Positions 9,801-62,860 of a stretch of DNA of 64,000 nucleotides are shown one piece after another (positions within the stretch are counted from its first letter, which is position 1; each line of letters opens with the position of its first letter). Position numbers and translations under genes: made by a program. A model generated the notes under the pieces. That model was not told the origin of the DNA. It saw nothing but the letters and a program-made list of their open reading frames with translations, and searched no databases. This DNA comes from Eledone cirrhosa (lineage: Eukaryota): contig OZ024746.1 of assembly GCA_964016885.1 (NCBI GenBank), forward strand, positions 58,032,001 through 58,096,000. Direction: 5' to 3'.

Positions 9801-10261
9801 CCTTCATAGTCCCAACGTGCATCTAGGATGTCATTCCAATCCCCCGCTAGAAGCAGTGAACGCGACGTTCCCAGAAAAGTCTCTAAACGCTGGAAGAAGT
9901 AGGGCCGTTCAGCTCCGAAAGGGGAGTAGACGGCGACCAGTCTTAAGGCCGCACGTTCACTACTGCCAACGTCTAGCACCAACAAACGACCCTCCGGGTC
10001 CGAGTGCACAACCTGTACGACAAGACCCAAGTGTTTTTGCAGCAGTACGACAACCCCACCCCCACATCCAGGTTGACAGAGAGATGCATGTACCTCAAAG
10101 TCATCGAAGGTAGGGGCCAGCTGCCGCACGACGCTGATCCGAGTCTCACAGATAACCATTACATTTATACCACATGAGCTGAGGTCATTTAGAAGCTTTG
10201 CTTGCTTCCAAGTTGAGCCCAGGCCACGTGCATTCAAACATCCTACTCTTAACACATCCAT
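6881..10261 (-). pseudogene. Tx1 ORF2 (APE endonuclease + reverse transcriptase), frameshifted
   Basis: LNARGL, GDWN, SYLDRFL, SPGLDGIP, NFRPITLLN, KAFDRVDH, RQGCPLS and YAHD (degenerate YADD), split over ORFs 9746-10261, 7935-9749, 7738-8013, 6985-7713 and 6881-7219. Confidence 0.92.
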
Positions 10262-10294
10262 GTGGGCGGCAGAGCCAAAGGAGAGTGTAGAGAC

Positions 10295-12523: not shown

Positions 12524-13447
12524 TGTTTCTTTATTAGTCACAGGGGAACAAAAGATGGGGACAAATACAAACGGGGAAGTTTACATAAAATAAAAACGTG
12601 TAAAATACTATCACAAATGCAATTTAAAAATTAATCGATTTTCCCCAATAGGGGCGACATTTCATATGGTTAACACATGCCCCCGAAAAAATGTGCAACC
12701 CTCATCTCCAGGAATACGAAGAGTTTGTACCACTTTCCTCTCTTCCTCTTTTTCCTCAACCTACAGGCTGATATAGAGAGAAGGCCTATCACTCAGGCCA
12801 TTCTCGCCACTTTCACCCACATTTCATAAGACATGCTGTAGTACAGCATCTCTCTCTCCATCCTGATTCTTCTTCCAAAGTGGTATTTTAACCTCATCCA
12901 CCATACAACCTCTTTCGCCATAGCTATCACACAAAGGAAAACCGCCTCTCCTTCGTTTTTGAAGGAGGGTGGCGGTTTGATATTGACAATGGTCTCGGTG
13001 GTCAACCGGATTGGTCCCACCCGCGATAATAATCGTTCTACATAGCCCCACAGGTCGGTAACGTCCGGGCAGTGTATGAATGCGTACGCGACAGTTTCTT
13101 CGTCTCGTAGGCATCTCGGACAGATCTTTTTCGAAGGGTCCCTGCACGGGCGCCCATGTCTGTAGAGCTTGTCTCGAACTGGTAGAGCTCCTCGGTAGCA
13201 CTGCCAGGCCAGTGACTTTTGGAAGGTGTCCATCGGTCCGGGGAAGAAGGTCCTACCGAACAGACTGGTCAGTTCGTCTTCCTCTACGCCTAGAGTTTCA
13301 CCGAGCGTGTCGTTGCACTTGCTGCGGCTCAACCCTCTATAGAATGACGAAGTGGAGTCTTCACTGATTGCCTGCCAGAGGGCTGTGAGCTCCTGAGCAC
13401 ATTCGATGTGCCAGTCACCCATTTTCCTCGGTCTTTGCTTGACCCAG
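12521..13447 (-). mobile_element. Tx1 3' fragment
   Basis: ORF 12793-13422 FQKSLAWQCYRGALPVRDKL..CPRC..HAFIHCP-like zinc motif; GATA at both ends. Confidence 0.88.
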
Positions 13448-13460
13448 ATAGATAGATAGA

Positions 13461-14208
13461 AATATATCTTTCTTTATTTGCCACAGGGCCGTACAAAAAT
13501 TGGACATTACAAGACGTAATAATAAAATAACAATTGAAATCCCCAATAGCGGGAACGTTGCTGCAGGGTTGCTTTACACCCCGTGGATAGAACGACCCTC
13601 AACACCAGGAACACGTTTTGTAGATGTTCCTGTCTCCCTTCTGTTTATCTTCCTCAACCTACAGGTTTATATACTCGTACCATTTTCGCAACATTCACCC
13701 ACCTTTCAGCGAATTTACTGGGGTGTAGCACCTCTCTCTCCACTCTCACCTTCCTTCTGAAGTGGTACTTAAAGAAGGGGATAAATTGTTGTCCGGAGAG
13801 AAAGGTGTTTACCCTCGGTCCTTTTAACCATATTACCTCTTTCGCCATAGCCACCAGACAGAGGAAAACCGCCTCTCCTTCATTCATAAATGAAGGCGGC
13901 GGGATGATCCTCACAATGGACTCGGCTGAAAACTGGATGTGTCCCACACGTGGCAGTAGCTGTTCGACTAATTCCACAGGTTGGTCACCCTGGGCACTGA
14001 AACGAGACCTCTGGAAGTTATCCATAGATCATGGGAGGAAATTCCTCCCGAACAGACTGGTCAGTTCGTCCTCCTCGATGCCTAGAATTTCCCCGAGAAC
14101 GTGATCGCACTTATCCTCCATTAATCCCCTATAGAAAGTCGAAGTGGAGTCTCCGCTGATTGCCGTTTTCGCTTGGTAGAGGGCTGTGAGCGCCTGTAGG
14201 CACTCGAG
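13461..14208 (-). mobile_element. Tx1 3' fragment, second subfamily, with internal deletion
   Basis: ORF 13654-14025; 3'UTR shared with the copy at 34205; GATA at both ends. Confidence 0.85.
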
Positions 14209-14220
14209 GATACATAGATA

Positions 14221-17200
14221 AGTTTCTATTTATTTGCCACGAGGGCACAAAAGAAGGGGACAAATACAAGGGGGGGGGGAGTTTACATGAAGGAACGAGT
14301 AAAAAACAAATAACAAATATAAAATTAACAATACAGTCCTCAATAGGGAGGAGGCGTTTTGGGGGTTACACACACACCCGAAAAAGTGTGCAACCCTTTT
14401 ACTTAGGAGCACAGAGAGGGGGTGCTCCTTTGAACTTCCACCTTTCCACCTACACGTTGATAAAGAGAGAAGGCCCATTCACACGGGCCATTCTCGCTAC
14501 TTTCACCCACCTTTCATAAAACTTGCTGGGTTAGAGCACTTCTCTCTCCATCCTGATCCTTCTCTTAAAATGGTATTTAAAGAAAAGGACCAGTTGTTGA
14601 TCAGAGAGAAAGGTTTCCGACCTCAGCCTTTTCAAACGTGTCCTCCATACCACCTCTTTCACCATGGCTATTACACAGAGGAAGACCGCCTCTCCTTCAT
14701 TTTTGAAGCGGGGAGGCGGCTAGATCGTTACAATGGACTCGGTGGTTCACCGGATTGGTCCCACCCGTGACAGCAATCGTTGGACATAGCCCCACAGATC
14801 GACAACGCCCGAGCAGTGTACCAATGCGTTCCCAACGGTTTCCTCGTCGCGCACGCATCTGGGACGATCTTTTTCGAGGGGCCCCTACCCGGGCTGCCGT
14901 GTCTATAGAGCTTTTCTCGAACGGGCAGCGCCCTTCGGTAGCACTGCCAGGACAGGGACCTCTATAAATTGTCAATAGGTCCCGGGCCAAATGTCCTCCC
15001 GAATAGGCTGGCCAGTTCGTCTTCTTCGATGCCTTGGGCTTGTCCGAGGGCGTCGTCGCACCTACTAACCACCAGCCCTCTATAAAATGACGAGGTGGAG
15101 TCTCCACAGAGAGCCGGGTCCGCCTGCCAGAGAGCCGTGAGCGCCTGGGCACACTTGGTGTGCCAGGTGCCCAGTTATCCCGGTCTTTGCTTGTCCCAAA
15201 ACTGCACCTCGGTGAGCGAGACGAGTCTCGGAAAGGCTCGCCTCACAAACGGGGCCCCACACCTGTTGGCCGGTGAGGAATACCTGGAGGTGCCGTAGCC
15301 TTAATGTGTGTTTACGCATCAGTAGCCACGGCATCCCAGCCCCCTTTCGAAGGGTGTTGACAGCAGATGGATCTCCTCACCAAAGGAGCCCGCTTGTTCC
15401 AAAGGAATTAGAAGAGTGCGCGCTCCATTTTTGTGAGCGTTTCCCTTGGGCAAGGCAAGACGGTCAGGCGGTAATAGATGACGGACGCTATATAAGCGTT
15501 CGCCACCTCCGCCCGCCCTTTCAGGGATAGTTTGCACTCAGCCCACTTCTGGGTCAGCGCAAACACACTCTTCGCTACCTCACCCCAGTTCTTCTCCACC
15601 TGGAGGTCTGGCCCGAACAAGACTCCGAGCAACTTCACCGGGCCCTCCGTCCAACGTCCGACGACGCCGTTGGAGGCCATCGGTTTGCCCCTCTACTCGC
15701 CGAGTTGCAACCGCCTGACTTGTCCCGGTTCAGCTTAGCCCCTGTAAAGGTTTCGTATTCCTCCAGTAAGTTGCCGATCACTCCGATTTCCGAGACGGTT
15801 GACACCATTACTGTCACGTCATCGGCATAGGCTGACACCGCTTTCCGCAATCCCGGTTCCAAAGGGATGCCCTGTAACGAACCAAACTTCTGCAGCAGTG
15901 GCTTGAGGGGCCAATTCAAACAGAATGGAGGAGAGTGAGCATCCCTCTCGGATGGACCGCGTGATTTCGAACGGCTCCGAGAGGTATCCGTTGACCTTGA
16001 CCATAGAGCAGATGGGGCTGCTGTGCATGGCAGTGATTCACCCCTGAAAATGGTTGCGAAACCTGCCGCCACTAGCACCGCTTCCAGGTAACGATGGTCG
16101 ACTCTATCGAATGCCTTAGATTGGTCCGAGTTGATCAGGGCCCCACACAAGCCGGGGTCGTTCCAAAACCCTCTCTATGATGTATCGCATGAGCTGGAGG
16201 TTGTCGTGAATGGACTTGGACGGGATAGCGGATGTCTGCGCATCTCCCACCAGGTTGCCCACGACGAAGCGCCAACCTCTTTGCTAACACCTTGGCCAAA
16301 ATCTTTAACTCTGCATTTAGCAGAGTTATGGGCCTAAAATTACTGATTTTTTCTCGTCCTTCCTCACTAACGAGACTACGCCCTTGGTCACAGAACGGGT
16401 AATTCTCCCGTTCTGTTGCCAGTTGCAGTAGACCGCCTCGAGGAGATCGAAAAACAAGTCCGGCATACTTAAATACAGTTCGTATGGAAGACCATCGAGC
16501 CCCGGAGGTTTGCGTCTGCCGCATTTGGCTCAGAACGTCCCCTATTTCAGCCGAAAGACGCGGCAGGCCGTCGAGGTATGGACCAAGGTCCACATCCTCA
16601 TCTACCCCCACCCCACACCCACCCCTTCCGAACAATCTGGCAATGTGCCTTTGAAAGGCCTCGCACAACTGCTTAGGTTCAAGGATCACCCGTCCATCCT
16701 GGTCTCGCAAAGACCGGATAGTGGATTTAATCCCACTTTTGGCTTCTGTCACGCGGGCCCAGCTAACAGCTTTGATCTCCTCGTTTCCTAGAGCACGTAT
16801 TTTGCTTCGGACAACGCAGCCTTCGTGTTTCGCGTCGAAAAACTGGCCCAAGGCCGTTCTCGACGCTAGCACTCTGGCTACGTCGCCGCTTCTAATTGTC
16901 TCTTCTACACTATCTAGCAACTCCCTTTCCTTCCTATTTCTATCTCCTATTACTAACTCCTATTGAAACTACTCTAATCTCTCTTTGAGAGAGCCCCACC
17001 ACCTGCTGTTGACGATGGCGCAACTCCCTTTCCTTCCTATTTCTATCTTCCTATTACTAACTCCTATTGAAACTACTCTAATCTCTCTTTTGAGAGAGCC
17101 CCACCACCTGCTGTTGACGATGGCGCCCGTCAACCACTCCTTAACTAAATTACTAATCCGGTAAGGACAAGTTGGGTTTCCAGGAACCGGGTCCCTGTCT

Positions 17201-26634: not shown

Positions 26635-26863
26635 TATATATATATATTGATATATATATATATATATATATTAAATTAACAGATTAAAGTTTACGCATCG
26701 TGCTTTCACCCTTGAAGGGATCGTCTGAAACAAATATTTTAATAAAGATTTGCTGCACGGTTTTTATATATTTTTATATATATATATATATTATCCTTAT
26801 CGAGCCCTCTTCGGATTTTAGTCTTCACATTTATTATTATTACTATATATATACATATATATA

Positions 26864-27254
26864 TATATTAATAAAAGGAATTCCAACTTTGTCTGATTTA
26901 CTCGTTTTATTTACAATCCTTTAACATTTATAATGCTATTAGAATGAAATAGTATGGTAGAATATTAAATGTTAAGTATTAATTGAACAAGTACTTTCAT
27001 GCTTTCGCAATCTTCAGGTTCATAATGTGTGGTGACAGTCAAGTTTGCAATTTTCAACAGTTGAAAATTGCAAACTTGACTGTCACCACACATTATGAAC
27101 CTTAAGATTGCGAAAGCATGAAAGTACTTGTTAAATTAACACTTAACATTTAAGATTCTACCATACTATTTCTTTCTAATACCATTATGAATTTTAAAGG
27201 ATTGTAAATAAAACGAGTAAATCTTACAAAGTTGGAATTTTGTTTTATTAATAT
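26864..27254. mobile_element. Fold-back HHR element, arms of about 195 bp with a 1-nt spacer at 27059
   Basis: Centre ...gcaattttcaac a gttgaaaattgc... Confidence 0.85.
26984..27022 (-). ncRNA. Minimal hammerhead ribozyme (right-arm mirror has a mutated core)
   Basis: tgaac-CTGAAGA-ttgc[gaaa]gcat-GAAA-gtac-TT^gttca. Confidence 0.78.
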
Positions 27255-32487: not shown

Positions 32488-33460
32488 TTTCTTTTTATTT
32501 GCCACTAGGGCATCAAAAAGTGGGACAAGTACAATGGGGGGAGTTTACATAACAAGGCGTCCTCAATAAGGAGGAGGCAATAACAAAATATAAAAATAAA
32601 ATAAAATATAACAAGATAAAATTTATAACAAAATCCTCAATAGAGAGGAGGCGCCTTGGGGGGTTGCACACACCCCCGAAAAAAGTGTGCAACCCTTCTC
32701 TTCAGGAGCACAGAGAGGGGGTGCTCCCTTGGTCTTTCATCTTCCTCACCTATAGTCTGATGTAGAGTGAATGCCCATTCACACGGGCCATTCTCGCCAC
32801 TTTCACCCATCTTTCATAAAAACGGCTGGGGTGCAGCACTTCTCTCTCCATCATGATCCTCCTTCCGAAATGATATCGGAAGAAACGAACCAGTTGTTGG
32901 CCAGAGAGAAAAGCGTCTGACCTCAGTCCTTTCAGACGCGTCCACCATACAACCTCTTTTGCCATGGCTATTACACACAGAAACACCGCCTCTCCTTCGT
33001 TTTTGAAGAGGGGAGGCGCCTTGATCATTACAATAGACTTGGTGGTCAACCGGATCGGCCCCACCCTTGACAGCAGTTGTTCGACATAGCTCCACAGATC
33101 GGCAATGCCCGAGCAGTGTACCAATGCGTGTGCAACGGTTTCCTCGTCGCAAACGCATCTGGGACAGATCTTTTTCGAGGGGTCCCTACCCGGGCGCCCG
33201 TGTCTGTAGAGCCTTTCTCGAACGGGCAGAGCCCCTCTGTAGCACTGCCAGGCCAGGGACCTCTGGAAGTTATCCATGGGTCCCGGGCTGAATGTCCTAC
33301 CGAACAGGTTGACCAGTTCGTCTTCCTCCATGCCTAGGGCTTCTCCGAGGGCGTCATCGCACCTGCTAACCACCAGCCCTCTATAGAATGACGAGGTGGA
33401 TTCTCCACTGACAGCCGGGTCCGCCTGCCAGAGAGCCGTGAGCGCCAGGGCACACTCGGT
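32485..33460 (-). mobile_element. Tx1 3' fragment (subfamily of the 14221 copy)
   Basis: ORF 32750-33529 with CPRC..HALVHC; GATA on both flanks. Confidence 0.9.
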
Positions 33461-33515
<55 letters not shown>

Positions 33516-33557
33516 GGATAGATAGGCACACTCGGATAGATAGATAGATAGATAGAT

Positions 33558-34146
33558 ATATTTCTTTATTAGCCACAGGGGCACAAAAGAAGGGGACAAA
33601 TACAAAGGGGGAAGTTTACATACAATAAAAACGTGTAAAATGTTATCACAGATGGAATTTAAAAGTTAGTCGATTTTCCCCAATAGAGGGAGACAGTTTA
33701 TATGGGTAACACAGACCCCCGAAAAAAATGTGCAACCCTCATCTCCAGGAGTACGAAGAGCTTGTACTCCTTTCCTCTCCTCCTCCTTTTCCTCAACCTA
33801 CAGGCTGATATAGAGAGAAGGCCCATTCACTCGGGCCATTCTCGCCACTTTCACCCACCTTTCATAAAACTTGCTGGGGTACAGCACCTCTCTCTCCATC
33901 CTGATTCTTCTTCCAAAGTGGTATTTGAAAAAAAGAATCAGTTGTTGGCCGGAGAGAAAGGTGTCTGACCTCAGCCCTTTCAACCTTGTCCACCATACAA
34001 CCTCTTTCGCCATAGCTATCACACAAAGGAAAACCGCCTCTCCTTCGTTTTTGAAGGAGGGTGGCGGTTTGATCATGACAATGGACTCGGTGGTCAACTG
34101 GATTGGTCCCACCCGCGACAATAGTCGTTCCACATAGCCCCACAGG
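33558..34146 (-). mobile_element. Tx1 3' fragment (subfamily of the 12521 copy)
   Basis: ORF 33798-34133; GATA on both flanks. Confidence 0.88.
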
Positions 34147-34193
<47 letters not shown>

Positions 34194-34204
34194 ATAGAAA
34201 GATA

Positions 34205-36632
34205 TTTTTATTTATTTGCCACAGGGCCGTACAAAAAATGGGACATTACAAGACGTAATAATAAAATAACAATTGAAATCCCCAATAGCGGGAACGTTAC
34301 TGAAGGGTTGTTTTACACCCCGTGGCTAGAACGAACCTCAACACCAGGAACACGTTTTGTAGATGTTCCTGTGCTCCTTCTGTTTATAACCCTCAACCTA
34401 CAGGTTTATATACAGAGAATGCCCATTCAATGGGGCCATTTTCACCACATTCTCGCACCTTTCAGCGAATTTACTGGGTTGTAGCACCTCTCTCTACTCT
34501 CACCTTCCTTCTGAAGTGGTACTTAAAGAAGGGGATAAGCTGTTGTCCGGAAAGAAAGGTGTTTACCCTCAGTCCTTTTAACCATATTACCTCTTTCGCC
34601 ATAGTCACCAGACAGAGAAAAACAGCTTCTCCTTCACTTTTAAATGAAGGTGGCGGAGTGATCTTCACGACGGACTCGGCTGACAACTGGATGCGTCCCA
34701 CACGCGACAGTATCTGTTCAACACAATTCCACAGGTCGGTCACACCTGGGCACTGAACAATTGCGTGCAGAACGGTTTCGATGTCCTGCTCGCATCTTGG
34801 ACAAGTCCTTGGCAGGATCTCTGCCAGGGCTTCTGTGCCTGTAGATTTTGGCTCGAACTGGTAGAGCTCCTCGGCAGCACTACCAGGCAAGAGACCTCTG
34901 GAAGTTATGCATAGGCGCTGGACGGAAAGTCCTCCTGAACAAACTGGTCAGTTCGTCCTCCTCGATGCCTAGAATTTCCCCTAGAACGTCGTCGCACTTA
35001 TCCTCGATAAATCCACTATAGAATGTCGAAGTGGAGTCTCCGCTGATTGTCGTTTCCGCTTGGTAGAGGGCTGTGAGCGCCTGTAGGCACGCGAGGGGCC
35101 AGGCACATATTTTCCGCCTTCGCTTGAGCCAGGACTGCAGCTCTGTTAGTGGGACGAGTTGTGGAAGAGCTTGTCTCACAAACGACAGCCACACCGGTTC
35201 GCCGGTCAAGAATACCTGGAGATGGCGTAGCCTCAGCGCGTGTTTGCGCATCATCAGCCACGGCATGCCCAGCCCTCCTTTAGAAGGGTGTTGACAGCAG
35301 ATGGATCTCTTCACCAATGGAGACTGCTCTTCCAGAGGAACTTGAAGAGTAGGCCTTCCATTTTGGTGAAGTATTCGCGTGGACAAGGCATGACTGTCAA
35401 GCGGTTGTAGATGACGGAGGCTATGTAAGTGTTCGCCACCTCCGCTCGACCTTTCAAGGAGAGTTTGCACTCAGCCCACTTCTGGGTGAGTGCAAACACA
35501 TTCGCCGTGACCTCGTTCCAGTTCTTGTCCACATGGAGGTCTGGACCAAGCCAGATGCCGAGAAGATGTTGGTGTGCATGGCACGAACCAGCCTCTTAAG
35601 ACGGGACCAAAGCTGGCCGCCTTGAGAACCACTTTTAAGTATTGATGGTCGACCGTATCAAATGCATTAGACTGATCTAAATTGATCAGAGCCCCACCGA
35701 AGCAAGGTTTACACCCTACCCTCTCTATGATGTATCGCATGAGGTGGAGGTTGTCGTCTATGGACCTGGTAGGGATTGCACACTTTTGCGCTTCCCCTTC
35801 CAGCTTCTCGACGACAAGCGCCAGGCTCGTTGCTAACACCTTGGCCAAAATCTTTAACTCTGTATTGAGCAGAGTTATGGGCCTGAAATTGCTTATATCA
35901 TCCCCCTTGTTCTCATCTTTCTTGATCAGCTTACTATGCCTCTACCTACAGAATTGGGAATCCTCCCGTTCTGCTGCCAATTGAAGTAGACAACTTCGAG
36001 GACGCGAGAGAACAAGTCTGGCATGCCTATGTACAACTTATACGGTACACCATCTAAACCGGTTAATTTGCGTTTCCCGCAGTGGCCTAGGGCATCTTCT
36101 ATTTCATCCCCTGTGATCGGCCTTTCGCAGCGCTCCGCATCCGTGCTCGAGATCGTGGTACGCTCTCGAGATAGGAGCTGAAGTCCATCACCTCGCTCGA
36201 CGTACCGTTTTTCCCAAACAGTTGTGTAAAATGCTGCTGGAAGGCCGTGCACATCTGCCTGGATTCAAGTATAATGCGCCCATCTTTGTCTTGCAAAGAC
36301 CGAATTGTGGATTTGTTGCCACTTTTCGCTTCTGCCACTCGGGCCCAGCTAACAGCTTTGGCTCCCTCGTTTCTTAGAGCACGTGTTCTACTTCTGACAA
36401 TGCAACCTTCGTGTTTCACGTTGAAGAACTGGTCTAGTGCCGTTCTCGCCGCTAGCACGTCAGCTGTACTGCCATTCCTAAGTGACTCTCCTACTTAAGC
36501 TACCAGTTCATTTTCATTTTTGTTTTTTCTAAAGCTACTTCCTTGCTAAATGCTATCGATTCGATTCTAATTGCTCTCTTGAGAGAGCACAACCCCTTGT
36601 TGTTGACGATCACCCCCGTCAACTGGCACTTA
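34205..36632 (-). mobile_element. Tx1 2.4-kb fragment (subfamily of the 13461 copy), internally deleted near 35565
   Basis: HEGCIVRS, NFRPITLLN region and NAFDTVDH, then a jump to PDLHVDKNW..KLSLKGRAEVAN. Confidence 0.88.
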
Positions 36633-46401: not shown

Positions 46402-48825
46402 ATAAATTGAAACAAAATGAAAACGAAATTTCATTTCTCACTCTTAGTATGGCACTTACTTAAATGTAAGTATGCATGTATACGTACATACATATATGTA
46501 TACAGACGTACAGTAGCATGCACATATATATATATATACACATATATACATACATATGCATACAGGTACACATACATATATGCACGTATCAGTTTAGCGG
46601 CGCTTATTATAACGTCGCTTTGTTCGTCTGTAAACAAACTGAACAGCCTGAATTTATGCCATACGGTGTTAAGGCAACCACGTCACCTTTTTGTTCAACA
46701 CTGACACAGGAACGATGTACTAGTTTCAAGCTTGTTAGCTATCATCAGCACCGTTTACCCATCTGCCAGATAGTTGAACGTTCGAAAGTATATACTTTCC
46801 TTATGAAAATTAACGGCTGAGCAGCCTAATTTGCATATTGAGTGAGTTAAATCGGTCAGGCATACCGAAAACGATAAATTGAAACAAAATGAAAACGAAA
46901 TTTCATTTCTCACTCTTAGTATGGCACTTACTTAAATGTAAGTATGCATGTATACGTACATACATATATGTATACAGACGTACAGTAGCATGCACATATA
47001 TATATATATACACATATATACATACATATGCATACAGGTACACATACATATATGCACGTATCAGTTTAGCGGCGCTTATTATAACGTCGCTTTGTTCGTC
47101 TGTAAACAAACTGAACAGCCTGAATTTATGCCATACGGTGTTAAGGCAACCACGTCACCTTTTTGTTCAACACTGACACAGGAACGATGTACTAGTTTCA
47201 AGCTTGTTAGCTATCATCAGCACCGTTTACCCATCTGCCAGATAGTTGAACGTTCGAAAGTATATACTTTCCTTATGAAAATTAACGGCTGAGCAGCCTA
47301 ATTTGCATATTGAGTGAGTTAAATCGGTCAGGCATACCGAAAACGATAAATTGAAACAAAATGAAAACGAAATTTCATTTCTCACTCTTAGTATGGCACT
47401 TACTTAAATGTAAGTATGCATGTATACGTACATACATATATGTATACAGACGTACAGTAGCATGCACATATATATATATATACACATATATACATACATA
47501 TGCATACAGGTACACATACATATATGCACGTATCAGTTTAGCGGCGCTTATTATAACGTCGCTTTGTTCGTCTGTAAACAAACTGAACAGCCTGAATTTA
47601 TGCCATACGGTGTTAAGGCAACCACGTCACCTTTTTGTTCAACACTGACACAGGAACGATGTACTAGTTTCAAGCTTGTTAGCTATCATCAGCACCGTTT
47701 ACCCATCTGCCAGATAGTTGAACGTTCGAAAGTATATACTTTCCTTATGAAAATTAACGGCTGAGCAGCCTAATTTGCATATTGAGTGAGTTAAATCGGT
47801 CAGGCATACCGAAAACGATAAATTGAAACAAAATGAAAACGAAATTTCATTTCTCACTCTTAGTATGGCACTTACTTAAATGTAAGTATGCATGTATACG
47901 TACATACATATATGTATACAGACGTACAGTAGCATGCACATATATATATATATACACATATATACATACATATGCATACAGGTACACATACATATATGCA
48001 CGTATCAGTTTAGCGGCGCTTATTATAACGTCGCTTTGTTCGTCTGTAAACAAACTGAACAGCCTGAATTTATGCCATACGGTGTTAAGGCAACCACGTC
48101 ACCTTTTTGTTCAACACTGACACAGGAACGATGTACTAGTTTCAAGCTTGTTAGCTATCATCAGCACCGTTTACCCATCTGCCAGATAGTTGAACGTTCG
48201 AAAGTATATACTTTCCTTATGAAAATTAACGGCTGAGCAGCCTAATTTGCATATTGAGTGAGTTAAATCGGTCAGGCATACCGAAAACGATAAATTGAAA
48301 CAAAATGAAAACGAAATTTCATTTCTCACTCTTAGTATGGCACTTACTTAAATGTAAGTATGCATGTATACGTACATACATATATGTATACAGACGTACA
48401 GTAGCATGCACATATATATATATATACACATATATACATACATATGCATACAGGTACACATACATATATGCACGTATCAGTTTAGCGGCGCTTATTATAA
48501 CGTCGCTTTGTTCGTCTGTAAACAAACTGAACAGCCTGAATTTATGCCATACGGTGTTAAGGCAACCACGTCACCTTTTTGTTCAACACTGACACAGGAA
48601 CGATGTACTAGTTTCAAGCTTGTTAGCTATCATCAGCACCGTTTACCCATCTGCCAGATAGTTGAACGTTCGAAAGTATATACTTTCCTTATGAAAATTA
48701 ACGGCTGAGCAGCCTAATTTGCATATTGAGTGAGTTAAATCGGTCAGGCATACCGAAAACGATAAATTGAAACAAAATGAAAACGAAATTTCATTTCTCA
48801 CTCTTAGTATGGCACTTACTTAAAT
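46402..48825 (-). repeat. Tandem array of 5.1 x 472-bp non-coding units, each with a hammerhead (retrozyme-like)
   Basis: Unit starts at 46402, 46874, 47346, 47818, 48290 and 48762; identical ORF translations recur at a 472-bp period; (TA)n flanks. Confidence 0.95.
46711..46755 (-). ncRNA. Minimal type I hammerhead (repeated at 47183-47227, 47655-47699, 48127-48171, 48599-48643)
   Basis: aacggtg-CTGATGA-tagct[aaca]agctt-GAAA-ctag-TA^catcgtt; 7-bp stem I; palindromic stem III ACTAGT. Confidence 0.88.
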
Positions 48826-49345: not shown

Positions 49346-50618
49346 TCATGAAATATGTGTATATGTCTATTATGCAAGTATGTCGGAGTGTGTCCGTATG
49401 AGGTATGTGTCTGTTATGTGAGTGTGTAGAATTTTCACACAAGAAAGAATTGTATAGAAGTTTGCCAAGAAAAACAACAACTTTAACTGGTCATTCAGTT
49501 AAGACATTTCGTGAACATTATGTTCATAAAATATTTCTCTGTTTTGAAATGAAACTTGGCGACTGGCCATTTCCGTATGGAAAGAAATAAGTGCGTCTCA
49601 CACTTACACGCACACCCAGTCATACAGACACACACACAGTCTAACAACATACCTTCACATACGCACACATACGCACGCACACGCCAATTATATATATATA
49701 TAAGAACACTCTATATACATCGTATCGTTACACACACACACATAATCTTAGGCACATAGACACATACATACAAAGGTAAGTCATTTTCACACACATCGTG
49801 ACACCGCGTATACATGTATTTATATTTCTGCGTTTACACAAACATGTACACACGGCCATACGCATGCATACCATATATACATACTTACACATACACACAA
49901 ATATTCCGTATACATACACGGACACGCTCTACAATATATTGTTATGTGTGTATGAATGCATCGAATTACAACCATACACTCACACAGCTAGCACAGCTTA
50001 TGCATGCAGGGACATGTATTTATTATGTTAATTTGTGTGTGTTGCGTGTATACGTCTATGTTCTCACGTACACATTTAAACATTACACCAATAGAGATAG
50101 AAGTGTATGTATGTATCTATGTATGTATGTATATATATGCATATATTTCTCTCTCTCTCTCTTTCCCTCAGTCTCTCTTCCTCTCTCTCTCCCTCTCTCT
50201 CTAATATATTTGTATATATATATATATATGTTATTAATACAGACTACATTTTAAGGAAAGAGTTTCTTCTTTCACCATAACAGTATCTTCTGAGAAGAGT
50301 CAGTCAGTAAAGGCAGAAGTACGTGTTTATTTGTATTTATTATTCATATATTCATACATATATATTTAGGGCTGATAGTATACAGTTATATAACTGGTAT
50401 TGATCAGATGATATGGCAATAGGATCGACCCTCCGAAACGATCGTAAAACAATGATATGAATAGTTAAAGTAACTGACTTTGTTGTCTTTATGTTTATTG
50501 TTAATTTAATATCTATTATATATATATATGTGTGCGTGTGTGTACGTGTGCATATTACTTTAATATACAAGCTGTGGTAAGGTGAGAAATAAAATTCTAA
50601 TTTTATTTTTATATATAA

Positions 50619-53964: not shown

Positions 53965-54298
53965 ATGGAGGCACAAGGCCAACAAGGGAAAGTCGATTTA
54001 ATCGCCCCCAATGTGTTGCTGGTGCTTTATTTTATAAAAGGATAAAAGGCAAAGCTAACCTAGGTTGGATTTGAACTTAGAACCTAAAGGGACGTAACGC
54101 TATGTCACAAATAATAACAATAATGATTTCTACTATAGGCAGAAGGGCATTAATTTGGGGTAGGAGTTAGTCGATTGAATCGACTCCAGTGCGTGAATCA
54201 TGCATTATTTTATCGACCTCGTAAGGATGAAAGGCAAAGTTAACCTCGACGGGATTTGAACTGAAAACCTAAAGGGCCATAATTTATTGTCACAAAGG

Positions 54299-54349
<51 letters not shown>

Positions 54350-54735
54350 TTTCTACTTTTGGCACAAGGCTAGCAATTATCCCAGTGCATTATTGGTGCT
54401 TCATTTAATCGACATCGTATAGATGAAAGGCAAAAAGTTAACCTCGGCGGGATATGAACTCAGAACGTAAATGAGCATAACTCTATGCTGCAAAGCATGG
54501 TGTCTAACGCTCTACCAATTCTGCGAATCCACTACACTTAATAATGATGGTTTTATATATACGCAGAAGGCCAGTAATTTGGGGGAGGGGAAAGTTGATT
54601 AAATCGACCTAGTACATTACTGGTGCTTTATTTTATCGACCCCATAAGGATGAAAGGCAAAGTTAACCTCGCAGGGTATTTGAACTCAGACCGTAAAGGG
54701 CCATACCTCTATACTACATAGCATGGTGTCTAATG
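53965..54735 (-). mobile_element. Stack of about four tRNA-SINE copies separated by (AAT)n
   Basis: Repeated aaggatgaaaggcaaagttaacctcg..gatttgaact, the reverse complement of the 4308 SINE. Confidence 0.85.
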
Positions 54736-57008
54736 GGACGAGGTGTCACATTTCCATTAAGTTTTTCAGGTGTGACGCGCATATATATGCAGGATATCTG
54801 TAGATAAAATGCCATGGAAATCAATGCTCAATGTATTGCCCGAAAACTTGTTTAGTAGAATTAAATATTCATACACTTATCATCTATGCACGCGATTTTA
54901 GGTTTCAGAGTCCAGTAATGGCCACCACTGTATTGTGAAGGAACTGTCTCAATATTGGCCTCTCATCAGACACCATGGCAGAATTACAAAAAATATCCTT
55001 GGTCCAACCACTCTGCTGAACGTAATCCGTTGTTAAAAATAATATTTTTCATCGCATAATACATAGCGATCATGAAATTAGTCGCTTTTCCTGCCCCAAA
55101 CTGGTGAGGAGCATATAAAGGTGATCTTTTTCGTTTTTGTTCAGTTTATTTAGTCTGCAAATGTTCAAGCTTTTACGATCTTCCAATTCGGATTAAATGT
55201 TCAAAAATTATTCAAATCCTTAGATTTAGCTATTCTACAAGCACTTGGAGTGCAGTCTGGATTTCGACCAAAACCCTCAATTTATCCTCGTTAATGGAAG
55301 AAGAAGGTTCAGGTCCTTTCATTATTTTCAAGAATTAATGCAATACAATGGAAATTGTGAATGCAATTTTGCATTGTGCCTTCATTAACTCTACATTGCC
55401 ACGAAACGTTTAATTTACCTTTCAACAGCAATGTAGCCGAGTTAAATATTATATAAATCGAATGAACATAATTGCAGCGTATGTAATTCTACCTAAATTT
55501 ATTGTTCCCCAAAAATGTTGAAACAAAAAAAAACAAAAAAAAACATGAAACCTGCATTAATTGCTGAACACCTGTATATATACTTCGCACTAATCGCGTA
55601 ACAGAGTACTGAAAACCGATGTAGAATTAATATTCAATGCATTAAGGCTAAATAGGGAGTTTTTATTTTCACTTATTTATCACAGTGTCATCAGAAAAAA
55701 AAAACATTTCAATATCAGAGACACTATAAATAAGAAAACTCGATGTGAGGGAATGGAATTAATTGAGGAGAGGTATTTAAGATAGGGTGTACATGCTGGT
55801 GGTGGCATTTGGGGAATAGGTCTGTATGAAATAGAAGACGATCATATGTAATACTGGACTTTAGCCAGTGAAGGTGAATAAATGTATATGAGCTTAGTGA
55901 AAAGGTTCGTGGTATTGGAAGGATGAAGCGGTAGAAACTTATATACACACACATACAGGCTAAATACATATAAGAAGGTGCTTACCAATTTGTAAATAAA
56001 TATATATTTTACTCACACAAACCCACTCTAGCATACCTAGAAGGAATTGAAAGAGCTCTTGCAGCGCATCTCCCTTACCATCTTCCAGGGAAACGCATTC
56101 TCCATTCTACCCGCTGGGGACCTCATTTACTCAATTGGGACCTCATTTACTCACTATACAGAGGGATGGGGAGGGCGAGAGAGAAGGGGGCAATGAAGAT
56201 GAGAGTCGGTTCTTCCGTTTTAGGTCACATTGTACCTGTAATGAGCACATTGTGACACCTTATTGTTGTGGTTGTTGTTATTGACAGAACTATACTTAAT
56301 CCCGACTTGTTACCTCGGTAATAAAAAGAGTTGTACATTCATATTATGAATGAATTGAATATATAAAATATTTAAAATTTATAAAAAGATTATATATAAA
56401 TCGTTATATCAAATTTGTTGATGGTTAAAATTGAACTGAGGTCGCTAGTGCTGACAAGAAGGTAATAAAAAGACCACAGAGCATTCTATGCCAAGAACGG
56501 TTAAGGCTGGTGCAATAAATATTCGGTCACCGAGAAATATTGGATGGGATCTAATGAATGCGTGCGTATCCCGGGATAATGAACTGACCGTGATTTTATG
56601 ACCATGAAATCAACAGAACTGATGAAGCTTACATTGAAATACACTACATACTTCAATTGTAAACACTTAAACAATCATAAAAAATCCAATAATAAAGATA
56701 TGATTCTTATGATCTACGGACTTTTCAACCATTGTAGCATTTGCCAACAATATATGACCCCTTTCATATAATTCTATTAACATCAGAAGACTTCAAACCG
56801 GTGCTGGTTGCTGATGTACCGATTGCAAAATAATCCCATTCTGTAACAGAAATGCGTATATTAAATATGATTATTTACATTATGTCATAACGTGCATTTT
56901 ATTTACATACACACATATATATATATGTATATATAGTAATAATAATAAATTTGAAGACTAAAATCCAAAGAGGGCTCGATAAGGATAAATATATATCAAA
57001 TATATAAG

Positions 57009-57722
57009 AACCGTAGAGGACGGGAGGGCGATGATTTGGTTCGTGGAGGCGTTCCCTGGCAAAGAACGGAAAAGAGAGAATGTAGTGCGTCATTGTTTGG
57101 AGCGGTGAAGGGCAATTGCACGCAAGGACGGGGCCGCGTTTGTGGTATAAACGAGGTCGTGGACTGGTGTTCTATTGGGTTGTTCATGGAGGCCTTCTCT
57201 GGCAATGAACGGAGGAAGCGGGGATGGTGCGTCATATGTGGAGCGGGGAGGGCAGTTGCACACAAGGGCAGGGCCACGTAAATGGTATAGCTAAAGTCGA
57301 GTGTTTTCGCGTATGCTTCTGTATGTACGTATATGGATGCGTGTATGTATTTATTTAATTTCATTTACCTCTGTATTTTATTTACTTTATTCTTAACTCT
57401 GAAGACGAGAATCTTTCGGTTTCCTAGTTAGAATTTTAGTCTACGACCATTTACGTGGTTTTGTCTTTGCGTGCAATTGTTCTCCCCGATCCACATATGA
57501 CGTATTATCTTCGTTTTTCCGTTCATTGCCGGAGAACTTCTCTATGAACCACCTAATAGAATATTAGTCTACGACTTCTTTTATACCATAAACGTGGTTT
57601 TGTCTTTGCGAGTAATTGTTGTTCACCGCTCCAAATAGTGACGTATTATATTCGTTTTTCCCGTTCTTTGCCAGGGAACGTTTCCACGAACCAAAGTATC
57701 GTCTTCCTGTCTTCCTCCGGTT
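57009..57722. repeat. Inverted repeat (57009-57298 / 57431-57722), each arm with two subunits of about 143 bp; arms differ mainly by A>G
   Basis: Anchors tttggttcgtgga, cgttccctggcaaagaacgg, tttggagcggtgaa, ggcaatgaacgga and cgtcatatgtgga occur in both arms. Confidence 0.88.
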
Positions 57723-57829
57723 GCAACGTTTTTTAAATATTCACTTCTGCGTTCACAGATTCACTTTGTTACATTCAGTAGATCCCGTTAAGCAGCGATT
57801 ATTTGCTTAAACTTTAATCTGTTATTTTA

Positions 57830-57902
<73 letters not shown>

Positions 57903-57940
57903 AACAATATATATATATATATATATATATAAGTTGTAAT

Positions 57941-58049
57941 AAAATGAAAACGAAATTTCATTTCTCACTCTTAGTACGGCACTTACTTAAATGTAAGTAT
58001 GTATGTATACGTACATACATATATGTATACAGACGTACAGTAGCATGCA

Positions 58050-58080
<31 letters not shown>

Positions 58081-58099
58081 GCATATATATGCATATATA

Positions 58100-58145
<46 letters not shown>

Positions 58146-58155
58146 CATATATATA

Positions 58156-58242
<87 letters not shown>

Positions 58243-58329
58243 GCATATATATATATATATATACATATATAATAAGCGTCCGCTAAACTGATACGTACAT
58301 ATATGTATGTGTACCTGTATGTATATGTG

Positions 58330-58371
<42 letters not shown>

Positions 58372-58424
58372 TGCTACTGTACGTCTGTATACATATATGT
58401 ATGTACGTATACATACATACTTAC

Positions 58425-58427
<3 letters not shown>
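57941..58427. mobile_element. Inverted fragments of the 472-bp repeat family
   Basis: aaaatgaaaacgaaatttcatttctcactc.. forward and aataagcgtccgctaaactgatacgt.. in reverse. Confidence 0.85.
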
Positions 58428-58475
<48 letters not shown>

Positions 58476-59587
58476 AAAGAATAGAGGTGTAACACACAAG
58501 TTATTATATATTGGTAAACGGAATAGAAAAAAAATGCTGACAAATAGTTCACAGTTGAAAAATGGTTTAATTAGGTATAAAAGAGTATTAGTGATTGTAT
58601 GGGTTAGTATTCAGTTGTGGTTTTAAGTTTTTAAGTTTTTACCGGTTGCGCATTTCTAAATGCTTTTCAAAAATAATTTTGAGATAGAGTGTCCGTGTTG
58701 TTTGCTCTGATTTGTATATATATATATATATGTATATAAATTCACATATATATGTGTGTATATATATACAGACACATATATACACAGGATGTCCCCAAAA
58801 TATATACACTCTTCAACAGTATTCTAATAGATATTGCATGTACAATAGAGGTTATCAAAGTGTATATATATATATATATATGCATACATATATTACCCTG
58901 CATCACGAATATATTATTACTTAGACACAATAATAATTACTTAATTGCATACACAGTCATATACGAATACAGTGAGACTTTTATTTGGCACACCCGTACT
59001 GAGACATGCATACAAGCATACCTACATACGAACGTAGGTATATACTTACATCACACACATCCACACATTCCTGCATACATGCACGCATACATACATATTA
59101 TACATACATGGATGCATACATATATACATGCATACATACTTACATAGATGCATACATACATACATGCATACATACTTACATAGATGCATACATACATACA
59201 TAATACATTCATGGTGGCTGCCAACGCGCTTTCGATTACGGCCACTACTTTATATCCATGTAGGAGAACCCCTACCGATGCGCTGATCGAGTGTGACTTT
59301 TTAGTCCAGCCAGCGACTTGAAAACTCTAATACAAACACTACACTTGTGACAATTATTGACATATAGTGCTGGGCCCATGGTACCATGTGACGACAAGTG
59401 CAGAGAGATCTCCAGATATAAAGCAATACCTGTGCCATGAAGTTGTTATAGTGAGCAAAGACACTGCACAAAGCCATTCCCACTCTCTTAACCAAGATGA
59501 TATTTACCAAAAAGAAGAACAAGTCAACATCATACAAACATACATACATACAAACATACATACAAACATACATACTTACAAACATAC

Positions 59588-60060: not shown

Positions 60061-61245
60061 GATAGCAACTAACAGTGCTGCGATCGAATGTGGCTTTTTA
60101 GCCCAGCCAATGATCTAAAATGTCTTGCACAGAGTCGGCAACCAAAACATTTACTGGGAATAGTCGGCTGTGGTTGGAGTTCGTGTACTTTTGCATGTCG
60201 CTTGAGTCCTCCTGCTGATTTACATTCTCTACCACATGTTTGGCAAGCATGATGAGTAGCATCTCCAACAGCAGCCTGGTAGTCAACCACTGGTCTTACT
60301 TTATGACTGCGAAGATGACTTTCGAGTCCAGCTTTGCTTAGGCAGAGTCTCGCACAGACGCTGCATGTCAGAAACATAGGAGGACCCTCGCCGTCTGGAA
60401 GTGCAACAGCAATACCCTTCCTCACGTCCCGCCTTACTTTCTCGTGTGCGATTCGAGATGCCTCAAAGGCAACTTTTCCCTCATATACAGTCTTTCTCCA
60501 TTTACTACGATCAGCAGCAATATTTTCCCATGTATCAGCAGAGATGTTAGCGTCTTTCAGAGAGGCCTTCAAGGAATCCTTATACCTCTTTTTTGGTTTA
60601 TGTGGCGGTCGTTTTCCTTTAACCAACTCTCCATAGAAGAGTTGTTTTGGTATTCTAGAATCCTTCATCCTGGCAAGGTGACCACTCCAACGGAGTCGCT
60701 GCTTAAGCACAAGAGCTTCTATACTGTCACACATAGAGCTTTCCAAAATCTCGACATCACTGATGTGGTCCCTCCAGTGAACGCCATGCATCCGTCTGAG
60801 ACACATCTGATGGAAACGCTCCAATTGCTTAAGGTGGCGTCGATATGTGACCCAGGTCTCGCAGGCATAAAGAAGACAAGAGAGTACACATGCCCTGTAC
60901 ACCTTTACCTTTGTCCTCCTGCATATGTCTCGCCGACCCCAGAGTCGCCTTTCTAGCTTTCCGAAAGCATCACTTGCTTTCCTAATCCTAAGTGAGATTT
61001 CACTGTCAAGGTTGCCGTATCGATTGACAGTGCTTCCCAGGTAGACAAACTGATCAACCACTCCAAGTCGTTTGCCATACACATAGATGTTTGGTTCAGT
61101 GTACTGCCTACCAGGTGCAGGTTGGTACATGACGACGGTTTTCTTGAGACTGACAGTCAAACCCAGGGCAGTGCAAGCGTCAGAAAATACATTCAAAATG
61201 TGCTGCATATCACTCTCTGTGTGCGCTACAAGAGGGAGCTTATAG
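59588..61245 (-). mobile_element. RTE-clade LINE 3' fragment; the probable 3' tail (59588-59626) is separated by microsatellite expansion
   Basis: ORF 60069-61259: GLTVSLKKT, FVYLGS, LLYACETW, RLRWSGH, RIPKQLFYGEL, then three C2H2 fingers. Confidence 0.88.
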
Positions 61246-62860
61246 ATAGGACAACACACGCTGTCTCTTCGTGGGGTAAGTTTTTAATTAATTTTTGTAT
61301 TCTGAAACATCAAAATACAACAATTTGTTGGTTACTGGACTCGGGAATGTCACGACAGAAGTTTGTGGAAGTTACACAAATATTTTAGTATATTTTAGCA
61401 GAGCAATCCTTATTTATATTTTACATTTACTTACATCTCAATATAACATGGCTAGAATTCAAATTTTGCTAAGAGAAGAAAACGGTCAAATGAACTAGAT
61501 ACATCTCACTGTCCACACCACCACAATAACGTCTACACTCTCTCCCCACCATCACATGTCATTACCATACCATACCCTATCGAGACTAAAGTCATCGACC
61601 TGTTGTCAAACTCTCTACTCTCTGATGAATGTATATATATATATGTGTGTGTATGTATATGTGTGTATATACATCACTCAGTCAAACAACCAGATTTCAA
61701 CCCCAACATCTACAACAACAACAACACCGGCACTAATGTTTACAGCAACAACAGCTTCAGAATGAACAAACATACATACATACATACATACATACATACA
61801 TACATACATACATACATACATACATGCATAGTCTAATACAACGGCGAACATAATATACACTGATGTTACAAGGTTTGAATAGATTCCAGTCATTTATTTT
61901 CATTTGATTTGCAAATTTGACAATATTTGATATGGATAACGTATGATATGCCATAACTAATCATGGCCCCCAGCTAAGATGTTGATATGCTTGATAACAG
62001 AAGCCTTGTGAATTTCCGTTTTATTCCATAAACAAATGGATTTTAAGATAGCGTTGGCTCTTTCTTTCTTATTGACTATGACATCCGACTTTCACAATGG
62101 CCGTTAAAGATGGCAGCCTTTCTATTTCTTTGCAACTAACACTAAGTAAATCTAAGCTACTAAAAGTACAGAGGAACCAGTCAGCCATCTTCGATAATGT
62201 GTTGTCCTTTTGGATAGGGAAAATTTTCATTGATTACTTTTGAGATGATGGAAACATTTGTTCTTGTCAACAGTCAAGAACATTTCAACTTACAATTAAA
62301 TCTATATAGATAATGTTGGTAGTGTTGTTGTTGGTTCTGTTTAGCCCTATGACAATGTTGTTGGAGTCAATTCTCATAAAAGACTTGTCAACAATAACCA
62401 ACGCTTTTATTTCGTTTAGATATATTATGTTTATTTTCTAAGGCTTCAATCGTTAGAGTCCCGTTCACCACATTTGAGGACTCTAATCCACAATGCTGAC
62501 ACACGTACATCGTTGATTTTAAGGGTATATATCGCTAAGCAATATACAGCTATCATCAATAATGTACTAACCAATTCGAAGAAGGAATTTTTCCTCGATA
62601 TTTTTTAGATGAAGAATATATTTTTTGTCGTCAACGGTTTAGGAGATTTCAACAATTTATTGCTGTATATATGTCGTCAGTAGTGAGGTTGGTAGATTTT
62701 GTTGTTTATTTGATTTCATGTTATTCCTGATAAGACGAGTTTTGACAGAAGGCATTCCAACTATCACCAACCCGTATTTTAAGATTATGCCTGTTTTTTT
62801 AAAGAAGTCTCTCAGCTGATGTGTGGGAGATATTGACAGTTATTATTATAAGGTTATGTC

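Follow-up and report, generated by a model that had tools for sequence, protein, structure and literature searches.

Junction-bounded A-to-G changes in one arm of a head-to-head Penelope-like insertion of Eledone cirrhosa suggest copying of an edited antisense template

A head-to-head retroelement insertion in the window (the 64,000-nt stretch of Eledone cirrhosa DNA analysed here) is built of three pieces: an unedited tail, an edited bridge and an unedited sense arm. The accumulation of A>G changes in its left arm is confirmed, and these changes very probably go back to ADAR. It is likely that such scars record the template of each piece of a Penelope-like insertion and that inverted arms can be made on a template other than the sense RNA, namely antisense RNA, which is the likelier candidate, or edited cDNA. 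The mechanism we favour, and to which we give a moderately high probability, is that the reverse transcriptase jumped onto ADAR-edited antisense RNA and thereby bridged its two cDNA ends.

A local alignment of the left arm (plus strand) with the reverse complement of the right arm, the left end of which took in about 25 nt of non-homologous sequence, showed 46 A>G differences against 5 G>A, 3 C>T, no T>C and 12 transversions in about 300 columns. The excess of A>G between the arms described in an earlier note on this DNA is thus borne out. When the left arm (57017-57302) was compared with a family majority sequence built from 25 copies, 49 of its 111 A's were found changed to G (one of the 49 sits at the outer junction and may belong to the neighbouring piece) and none of its 60 T's to C; the other changes were 3 G>A, no C>T and 5 transversions. 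In the right arm the corresponding values were 0/219 A>G and 2/120 T>C. The A>G background in 128 unedited family segments is 0.7%, and the probability of at least 49 changes among 111 A's at a rate of 2% is 1.5e-52. As the earlier note had stated, CpG is not the context of the changes, since only 3 of the 49 are preceded by C. Majority comparison, background rate and contexts taken together show that the A>G changes of the left arm are derived, one-directional, not driven by CpG and far beyond chance.

Two readings would remove the need for such a process: G could be ancestral and the right arm decayed by C>T deamination, or the arms could belong to two common subfamilies. Both had been considered in the earlier note, and their probability is now negligible. 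With the A-rich right arm as query, 2173 candidates were obtained, of which 40 were scored; all 39 non-self full-length matches were 92-97% identical. The G-rich left arm as query yielded 39 non-self matches (again 40 scored) that were only 79-81% identical. Among the 40 candidates scored per search every other copy is therefore A-rich and none exceeds 81% identity to the G-rich arm, which argues against two subfamilies and supports the direction from A to G. The comparison with a family consensus, which the earlier note had proposed, identified the A-rich state as ancestral; the consensus does not match the G-rich arm. Deamination of the right arm is contradicted by its agreement with the family majority.

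One end is fixed in all copies of the family: AATAAA, after which comes (TA)n or a further tail of about 85-90 nt. At the opposite end, which varies between copies (5' truncation), an inverted copy is often attached. Longer copies extend into an open reading frame on the strand ending in AATAAA, and this frame fixes the orientation of the right arm: its plus strand is the sense strand, and the A>G changes are thus antisense. The tail sequence seen in the window recurs in many copies, and in the near-full-length copy L077 it leads into the start of the open reading frame. L077 spans about 3.3 kb including a 3' region of about 1.1 kb, compared with generally under 3 kb in the Hydra clade, and contains reverse-transcriptase motifs, DKT, RWR, a CxCX5C linker and a C-terminal endonuclease with CxxC and CxH flanking conserved E and N. 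One cysteine is changed in the copy L028, and the family majority encodes CxxC. The motif-like strings, among them IVY/YIG, were identified by eye in the broken frames of L077 and L028, and we take them to be those of a reverse transcriptase and a GIY-YIG-type endonuclease. A Pfam search of the open reading frame pieces gave no relevant match; the nearest ESM Atlas clusters carry PF26215, with RVT_1 and GIY-YIG in some as well (12% of members).

On these features the repeat is identified as the 3' end of a Penelope-like retrotransposon (EN+), in keeping with the retroelement postulated by the earlier note. Helitron/MITE and SINE readings were dropped since the longer copies run into a reverse-transcriptase/endonuclease frame. 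The family likely belongs to the Hydra clade, which PMC8557442, in the passages used here, defines by DKT, RWK, CxCX5C, CxxC/CxH around E and N and a (TA)n target. DKT (modified DKG) is present, RWR stands for RWK, and the copies are inserted into (TA)n as in that clade; comparison with this definition led us to replace a Neptune label by a Hydra-like one. Rfam detected no hammerhead ribozyme in four loci, the only matches being to a microsatellite-driven microRNA and other weak sub-threshold ones, and a regular-expression search found no canonical hammerhead core. A core-like string with one base changed occurs on the sense strand near the 3' end of the element (L006:1405-1465, minus) but is unsupported by its fold (z=0.30). 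The flanks of L021 and L076 contain open reading frame fragments of other, more distant Penelope-like families.

The insertion in the window extends from about 56935 to 57836 (Table 1), so that the span given in the earlier note, 57009..57722, covered its paired part but not the full insertion. Apart from A>G the two arms are equally diverged (8/283 versus 15/533), which is what a joint insertion would lead one to expect. No host function follows from this dead, truncated insertion, and no host exon was identified near it. The unedited arms of this insertion (57300) and of the copy L061 (1476) both stop at family position 665-666, possibly a truncation hotspot. Further family copies in the window, a small head-to-head insertion at 26664-26866 and another copy at 50224-50320, showed no dense editing.

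Table 1. Pieces of the head-to-head insertion in the window and locations of further copies
Feature	Position	Strand	Remarks
(TA)n-type target tract, left side	56918..56934	.	from sequence; family copies sit in (TA)n
Penelope-like 'tail' extension, family positions ~23-106, unedited	56935..57018	-	47 A's aligned: 0 A>G except 1 in TA tract
Outer join, deletes family positions ~107-243 (~137 positions)	57016..57019	.	microhomology 0-3 nt, depending on editing of one A
Hyper-edited segment, element antisense strand, family positions ~244-499	57019..57273	+	A>G at ~44% of A's
Last 26 nt of inverted arm before inversion junction	57274..57299	+	8 A's unedited; one G is a common family allele (27/61)
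Head-to-head inversion junction, family 525 / 666	57298..57300	.	2-nt microhomology
Unedited 5'-truncated sense copy, family 666 to 112	57300..57836	+	3' UTR with ~141-nt internal dimer, ends AATAAA
(TA)n target tract, right side	57837..57900	.	
L071	G000:C6:57.83 Mb		sense-strand A>G patches
L075/L077	G000:C28:96.98 Mb		sense-strand A>G patches; L077 near full length
Sister insertions L082, L083/L041	G000:C2:384248895-384249766 and 384257966-384259120		different start sites (tail versus none)

Several other repeats surround the insertion. Another inverted-repeat element in (TA)n adjoins it at 57930-58480. A 472-bp unit resembling the element at 57930-58100 is repeated 5.1 times with 100% identity at 46402-48825, which represents either a very recent tandem duplication or an assembly artefact. 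A dispersed repeat of about 200 nt, with four spaced copies at 54000-54724, presumably resembles an octopus SINE. Fragments of LINE-type reverse transcriptase, endonuclease and zf-RVT occur at 7935-10294, 12793-16174 and 32750-35941 (minus), and a frame of 404 codons at 60069-61283 (minus) ends in C2H2-type zinc fingers and looks by eye like the C-terminal part of a LINE open reading frame.

Editing scars are not confined to the window: at least 7 of over 2,000 candidate family copies carry them, a number that is a lower bound and not a rate, the search patterns having been built partly from known edited copies. L041 was found by the left-arm search and L061 and L065 by pattern searches, of which twelve were run in antisense and sense polarity, five without a match. 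Together with the window these three make four independent antisense-edited insertions, in each of which the partner arm is unedited. L041 has 156/373 A>G over about 940 family positions and an unedited partner of 220 nt (1/84). In L061 the edited arm has 36/91 and the partner 8/281, several of these being common family alleles. In L065 a 90-nt piece flanked by two junctions has 16/40; the region with which this piece might have paired is deleted from the long arm, and the adjoining piece, which has a partner, is unedited (2/51). No further partner sequence was found within about 10 kb of L061 or L065. A local partner for the edited piece is thus present in the window and in L061 but absent for most of the L041 edits and for L065 (about 10 kb scanned).

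The borders of the edited pieces follow a pattern, although the number of cases is small. In three of the four antisense cases editing begins after the deletion join (0, 16 and 1 nt in) and the outer piece is unedited, and in L041 it begins 6 nt from the end of the element. All four also have an unedited stretch of 20-28 nt, with 7-10 A's, directly ahead of the inversion, a statistic that is post hoc and to be read beside the internal unedited gaps of 22-41 nt that also occur. That all four antisense cases are inverted carries little weight, because an inverted arrangement was also scored for 26 of the 33 unedited copies that were closed (at least one through a spurious microsatellite match). 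Several copies were not counted as edited: L062, L066, L069 and L070 have two or few chance or subfamily changes, L110-L112 share a subfamily variant, and L076 is an old copy with an ambiguous 18/276 A>G and 22 G>A. Apparent T>C clusters in L020 and L046 proved to be microsatellite mis-alignments. In the flank of another copy lies a near-perfect palindrome of 78 nt (L029:2127-2204).

The earlier note had envisaged that a transcript of the inverted copy folded back, was edited as a hairpin and was then retrotransposed whole. The plus strand can indeed form a long hairpin, and Penelope RNA of a lizard is reported to be heavily edited (PMC5625713, in the part cited). However, such a transcript predicts edits on the same strand in both arms, whereas 2/120 positions are changed in the right arm of the window and 49/111 in the left (p=1e-16), and the partner is unedited in 4/4 cases. 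At the other loci the paired piece of L065 is the unedited one and its edited piece lacks a local partner, and the edits of L041 extend over more than four times the length of its partner. We therefore regard this route as highly improbable.

Two further copies, L071 and L075, are colinear and carry patchy A>G changes on the sense strand, with unedited 3' ends (the 3'-most 300-700 nt). Their edited sites are largely independent, 11 being shared, and the inverted partner of L075 is unedited. These two sense-edited copies indicate that edited RNA of the family does get reverse-transcribed.

L041 has a sister insertion 9 kb away in inverted orientation. Both have the same junction and share 49 of 51 edits, and 94 A's are unedited in both. 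They lie in different flanks, the sister has a tail (L041 has none) and a shorter edited arm, and the two differ at 13 other positions in 372 columns. For this one locus it is thus shown that an edited composite was copied at least twice and that the edits are inherited and copyable, in agreement with the heritability which the earlier note attributed to such edits. The sisters may represent opposite ends of a single event, or an edited master may have been copied again; no third copy turned up among the 40 candidates scored out of 1295. The pair also bears on the question whether sequencing, polishing or assembly at a hairpin could have produced the pattern. An artefact might be suspected because there is no independent DNA read across the edited arm (depth was 0 at 57116-57147 in all four of the 21 sequencing runs that were mapped, which is no evidence either way). 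But it would have to reproduce the shared edits at two loci with different flanks and ends while leaving their other differences in place, it would have to act where there is no hairpin (L065, L071), and it would have to imitate an enzyme-like context. This makes it extremely improbable.

The nucleotide context was counted after exclusion of family positions 690-890, where the alignment is poor, and in the window after masking of 91 polymorphic sites. Edited over total A's by 5' neighbour in the window were T 11/19, A 23/43, C 3/15 and G 5/25. The depletion of 5' G is significant (p=0.019), in agreement with the sparing of A's 3' of G that had been noticed by eye. In the pooled antisense-edited arms 198 of 478 A's are edited, distributed by 5' neighbour as U 58/100, A 108/204, C 19/80 and G 13/94 (p=2.5e-10), that is, 13/94 after G against 185/384 after the other nucleotides. 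Without the window (156/376 A's) the context remains significant at p=5e-9. A graded preference U>A>C>G is the order known for ADAR, so the ADAR-like context claimed in the earlier note holds for the antisense-edited copies. Depletion of an upstream G is described as a common ADAR mark in the cited passages of PMC5625713 and PMC2873906. By 3' neighbour the antisense set gave C 61/105, G 35/67, U 37/103 and A 65/203; A is the least edited class, unlike the enrichment of A downstream reported for hyper-edited invertebrate RNA (PMC5625713, same passages). In the sense-edited set (L071, L075) A's after A/U were edited at 65/129 and those after C/G at 14/65 (p=1e-4), but 5' G was not the lowest class (G 9/31 versus C 5/34 in clusters; overall p=0.73 for G depletion). 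The genome contains four deaminase-family loci of the ADAR/ADAT type (PF02137), a domain by which ADAR and ADAT are not told apart. Clusters of sense-strand G>A changes as left by APOBEC are absent from the edited arm, given its 3 G>A and 0 C>T.

Could a polymerase alone have done this? A burst of errors on one template segment, either by insertion of G opposite template U under nucleotide imbalance or by a translesion polymerase with a WA bias, would give A>G on the cDNA strand without any deaminase, and a 5' A/T preference is also the motif of polymerase eta. On the other hand, a rate of 40% with almost no other errors (0/60 T>C) lies far above known polymerase error rates, the same mispair cannot yield the A>G clusters that L071 and L075 carry on the sense strand, and the full graded order matches ADAR. 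An error burst is accordingly very unlikely as the source.

How, then, did an edited antisense sequence come to lie between two unedited pieces? A possible answer lies in the way Penelope-like elements insert. According to published biochemistry the protein would nick both target strands and extend both on sense RNA from two start sites, giving a tailed left end and an untailed right end. In vitro, cleavage and extension of both target strands have been observed with a purified Penelope-like protein, the two start sites defining the tail (PMC11167929, from 2024, which in the passages cited leaves the later steps unvalidated). These two cDNA start sites account for the two unedited outer pieces: the tail piece would be a short cDNA primed from the left nick and the sense arm a cDNA primed from the right nick. 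Antisense RNA of the same active subfamily would pair with sense RNA, presumably in trans, and be deaminated by ADAR. The right-hand cDNA, cut short, would switch by microhomology of 1-2 nt onto the unpaired and hence unedited margin of about 25 nt of the antisense RNA, whose inosines would be read as G by the reverse transcriptase. Finally the bridged right-hand cDNA would be joined with a deletion to the short left-hand cDNA, and the edited piece would represent a third, separately templated filler between two unedited outer pieces. Rare subfamily alleles, present in 2 of 67-69 copies, occur in both arms of L041, which makes the same active lineage the likely origin of the antisense RNA; the arms of L061 differ at two diagnostic sites. 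An antisense template and bidirectional transcription had already been proposed for head-to-head repeats in 2013, together with a call for experiments (PMC3846280). The model outlined in that source is one of self-priming; here, by contrast, the two sides of the junctions lie 140-1250 nt out of register and form no palindrome.

Instead of antisense RNA, the nascent cDNA paired with sense RNA could have been the substrate, with ADAR deaminating deoxyadenosines in the RNA:DNA hybrid. Edited antisense RNA and edited cDNA both give A>G on the antisense strand and cannot be separated by sequence alone, nor do junction microhomologies of 0-3 nt separate the models. The plus strand of the edited arm is the one that a left-primed cDNA would be, and the strand fits in 4/4 cases. 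The alleles shared by the L041 arms agree with editing of cDNA too, both arms then coming from one subfamily because one RNA was used twice, and a polymerase footprint could explain why the 20-28 nt at the 3' end of the cDNA are unedited. ADARs are able to edit a hybrid's DNA strand (PMC5389660), and a review of 2021, in the part cited, calls ADAR DNA editing of retroelements an open possibility. However, full-length human ADAR2 edited only three DNA-strand sites in a matched hybrid of 90 bp (PMC5389660, in the experiment cited), compared with about 41% of A's here. The first-made piece before the deletion join is unedited in 3/3 cases (window tail, L061 and L065, the last with 2/51), and the sense-edited copies already show a route through RNA. 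Moreover, deoxyinosine is normally repaired. All in all, editing of cDNA appears rather unlikely.

One arm might also have been overwritten after insertion, an edited transcript serving as donor in RNA-templated repair or gene conversion. Inverted repeats are prone to breakage, and in the window editing affects a part that has a local partner but spares the unpaired tail. Yet the equal divergence of the arms apart from A>G suggests that they were inserted together, the edit borders track the insertion junctions, and L065 and L041 lack partners for most of their edits. Overwriting should also strike the sense arm equally often, but 0/5 inverted partners (those of the four antisense cases and of L075) are edited. 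Such a secondary event is distinctly unlikely.

If copying of antisense RNA is the true explanation, the left arm would preserve, like a fossil, the way in which Penelope-like elements build inverted ends, and strand-resolved editing scars make the formation of head-to-head repeats a matter of genome-wide counting with clear predictions. RNA editing likely feeds heritable change, though rarely, considering the small number of scarred copies and the single one copied again. Should editing of cDNA be the true explanation, it would constitute DNA editing by ADAR in vivo, which the 2021 review, as cited above, lists as unknown, and ADAR would be an APOBEC-like DNA editor of retroelement cDNA in an invertebrate germ line.

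The family resembles known Hydra-clade elements (PMC8557442, PMC3846280, PMC11167929) in DKT, linker, CxxC/CxH, C-terminal endonuclease, (TA)n target, 5' truncation, optional tail and inverted copy. It differs from them, as far as the cited passages describe them, in the length of the tail (about 85-90 nt instead of 30-40 nt), in RWR instead of RWK and in the hammerhead, which is canonical there and was not found here; edited genomic copies are not mentioned in those passages. Hyper-edited RNA clusters in repeats are exceptionally frequent in octopus, and lizard Penelope has over 40,000 sites (PMC5625713). These clusters share with our copies the dense A>G, the depletion of upstream G and Penelope substrates, but the edits reported in that source exist in RNA only, whereas here they are found in a genome assembly and with a different downstream preference. 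Suppression of Alu retrotransposition by ADAR mutation is called undetermined in the relevant part of a review (PMC4982230). A literature search by title and abstract, with most subscription journals and supplements outside its scope, revealed no edited genomic Penelope-like copies and no antisense-edited retrocopies.

DNA editing by APOBEC has been fixed in LTR retroelements of vertebrate genomes (PMC4866542, PMC2873906). Those scars, as the cited passages describe them, are likewise clustered, strand-biased deaminase footprints in single retroelement copies, polarised by a consensus, but they consist of sense-strand G>A (C>U in the cDNA), concern LTR elements and are reported absent from 19 invertebrates, whereas the scars described here are A>G, occur in both polarities and reside in Penelope-like elements. 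A further related case is the ADAR-type A-to-G hypermutation of avian proviruses, seen in U3 of a Rous-associated virus (Felder 1994) and in an inverted repeat of avian leukosis virus (Hajjar & Linial 1995), both as summarised in the section of a review cited here (PMC12925331). There, too, nearly half of the A's were changed to G and fixed as DNA by reverse transcription. Unlike those proviruses, the present element is an endogenous retrotransposon of non-viral nature, carried in the germ line and found in the assembled genome of an animal, and its antisense edits are restricted to one arm and bounded by junctions. It is this antisense, junction-bounded form of captured ADAR edits that is new.
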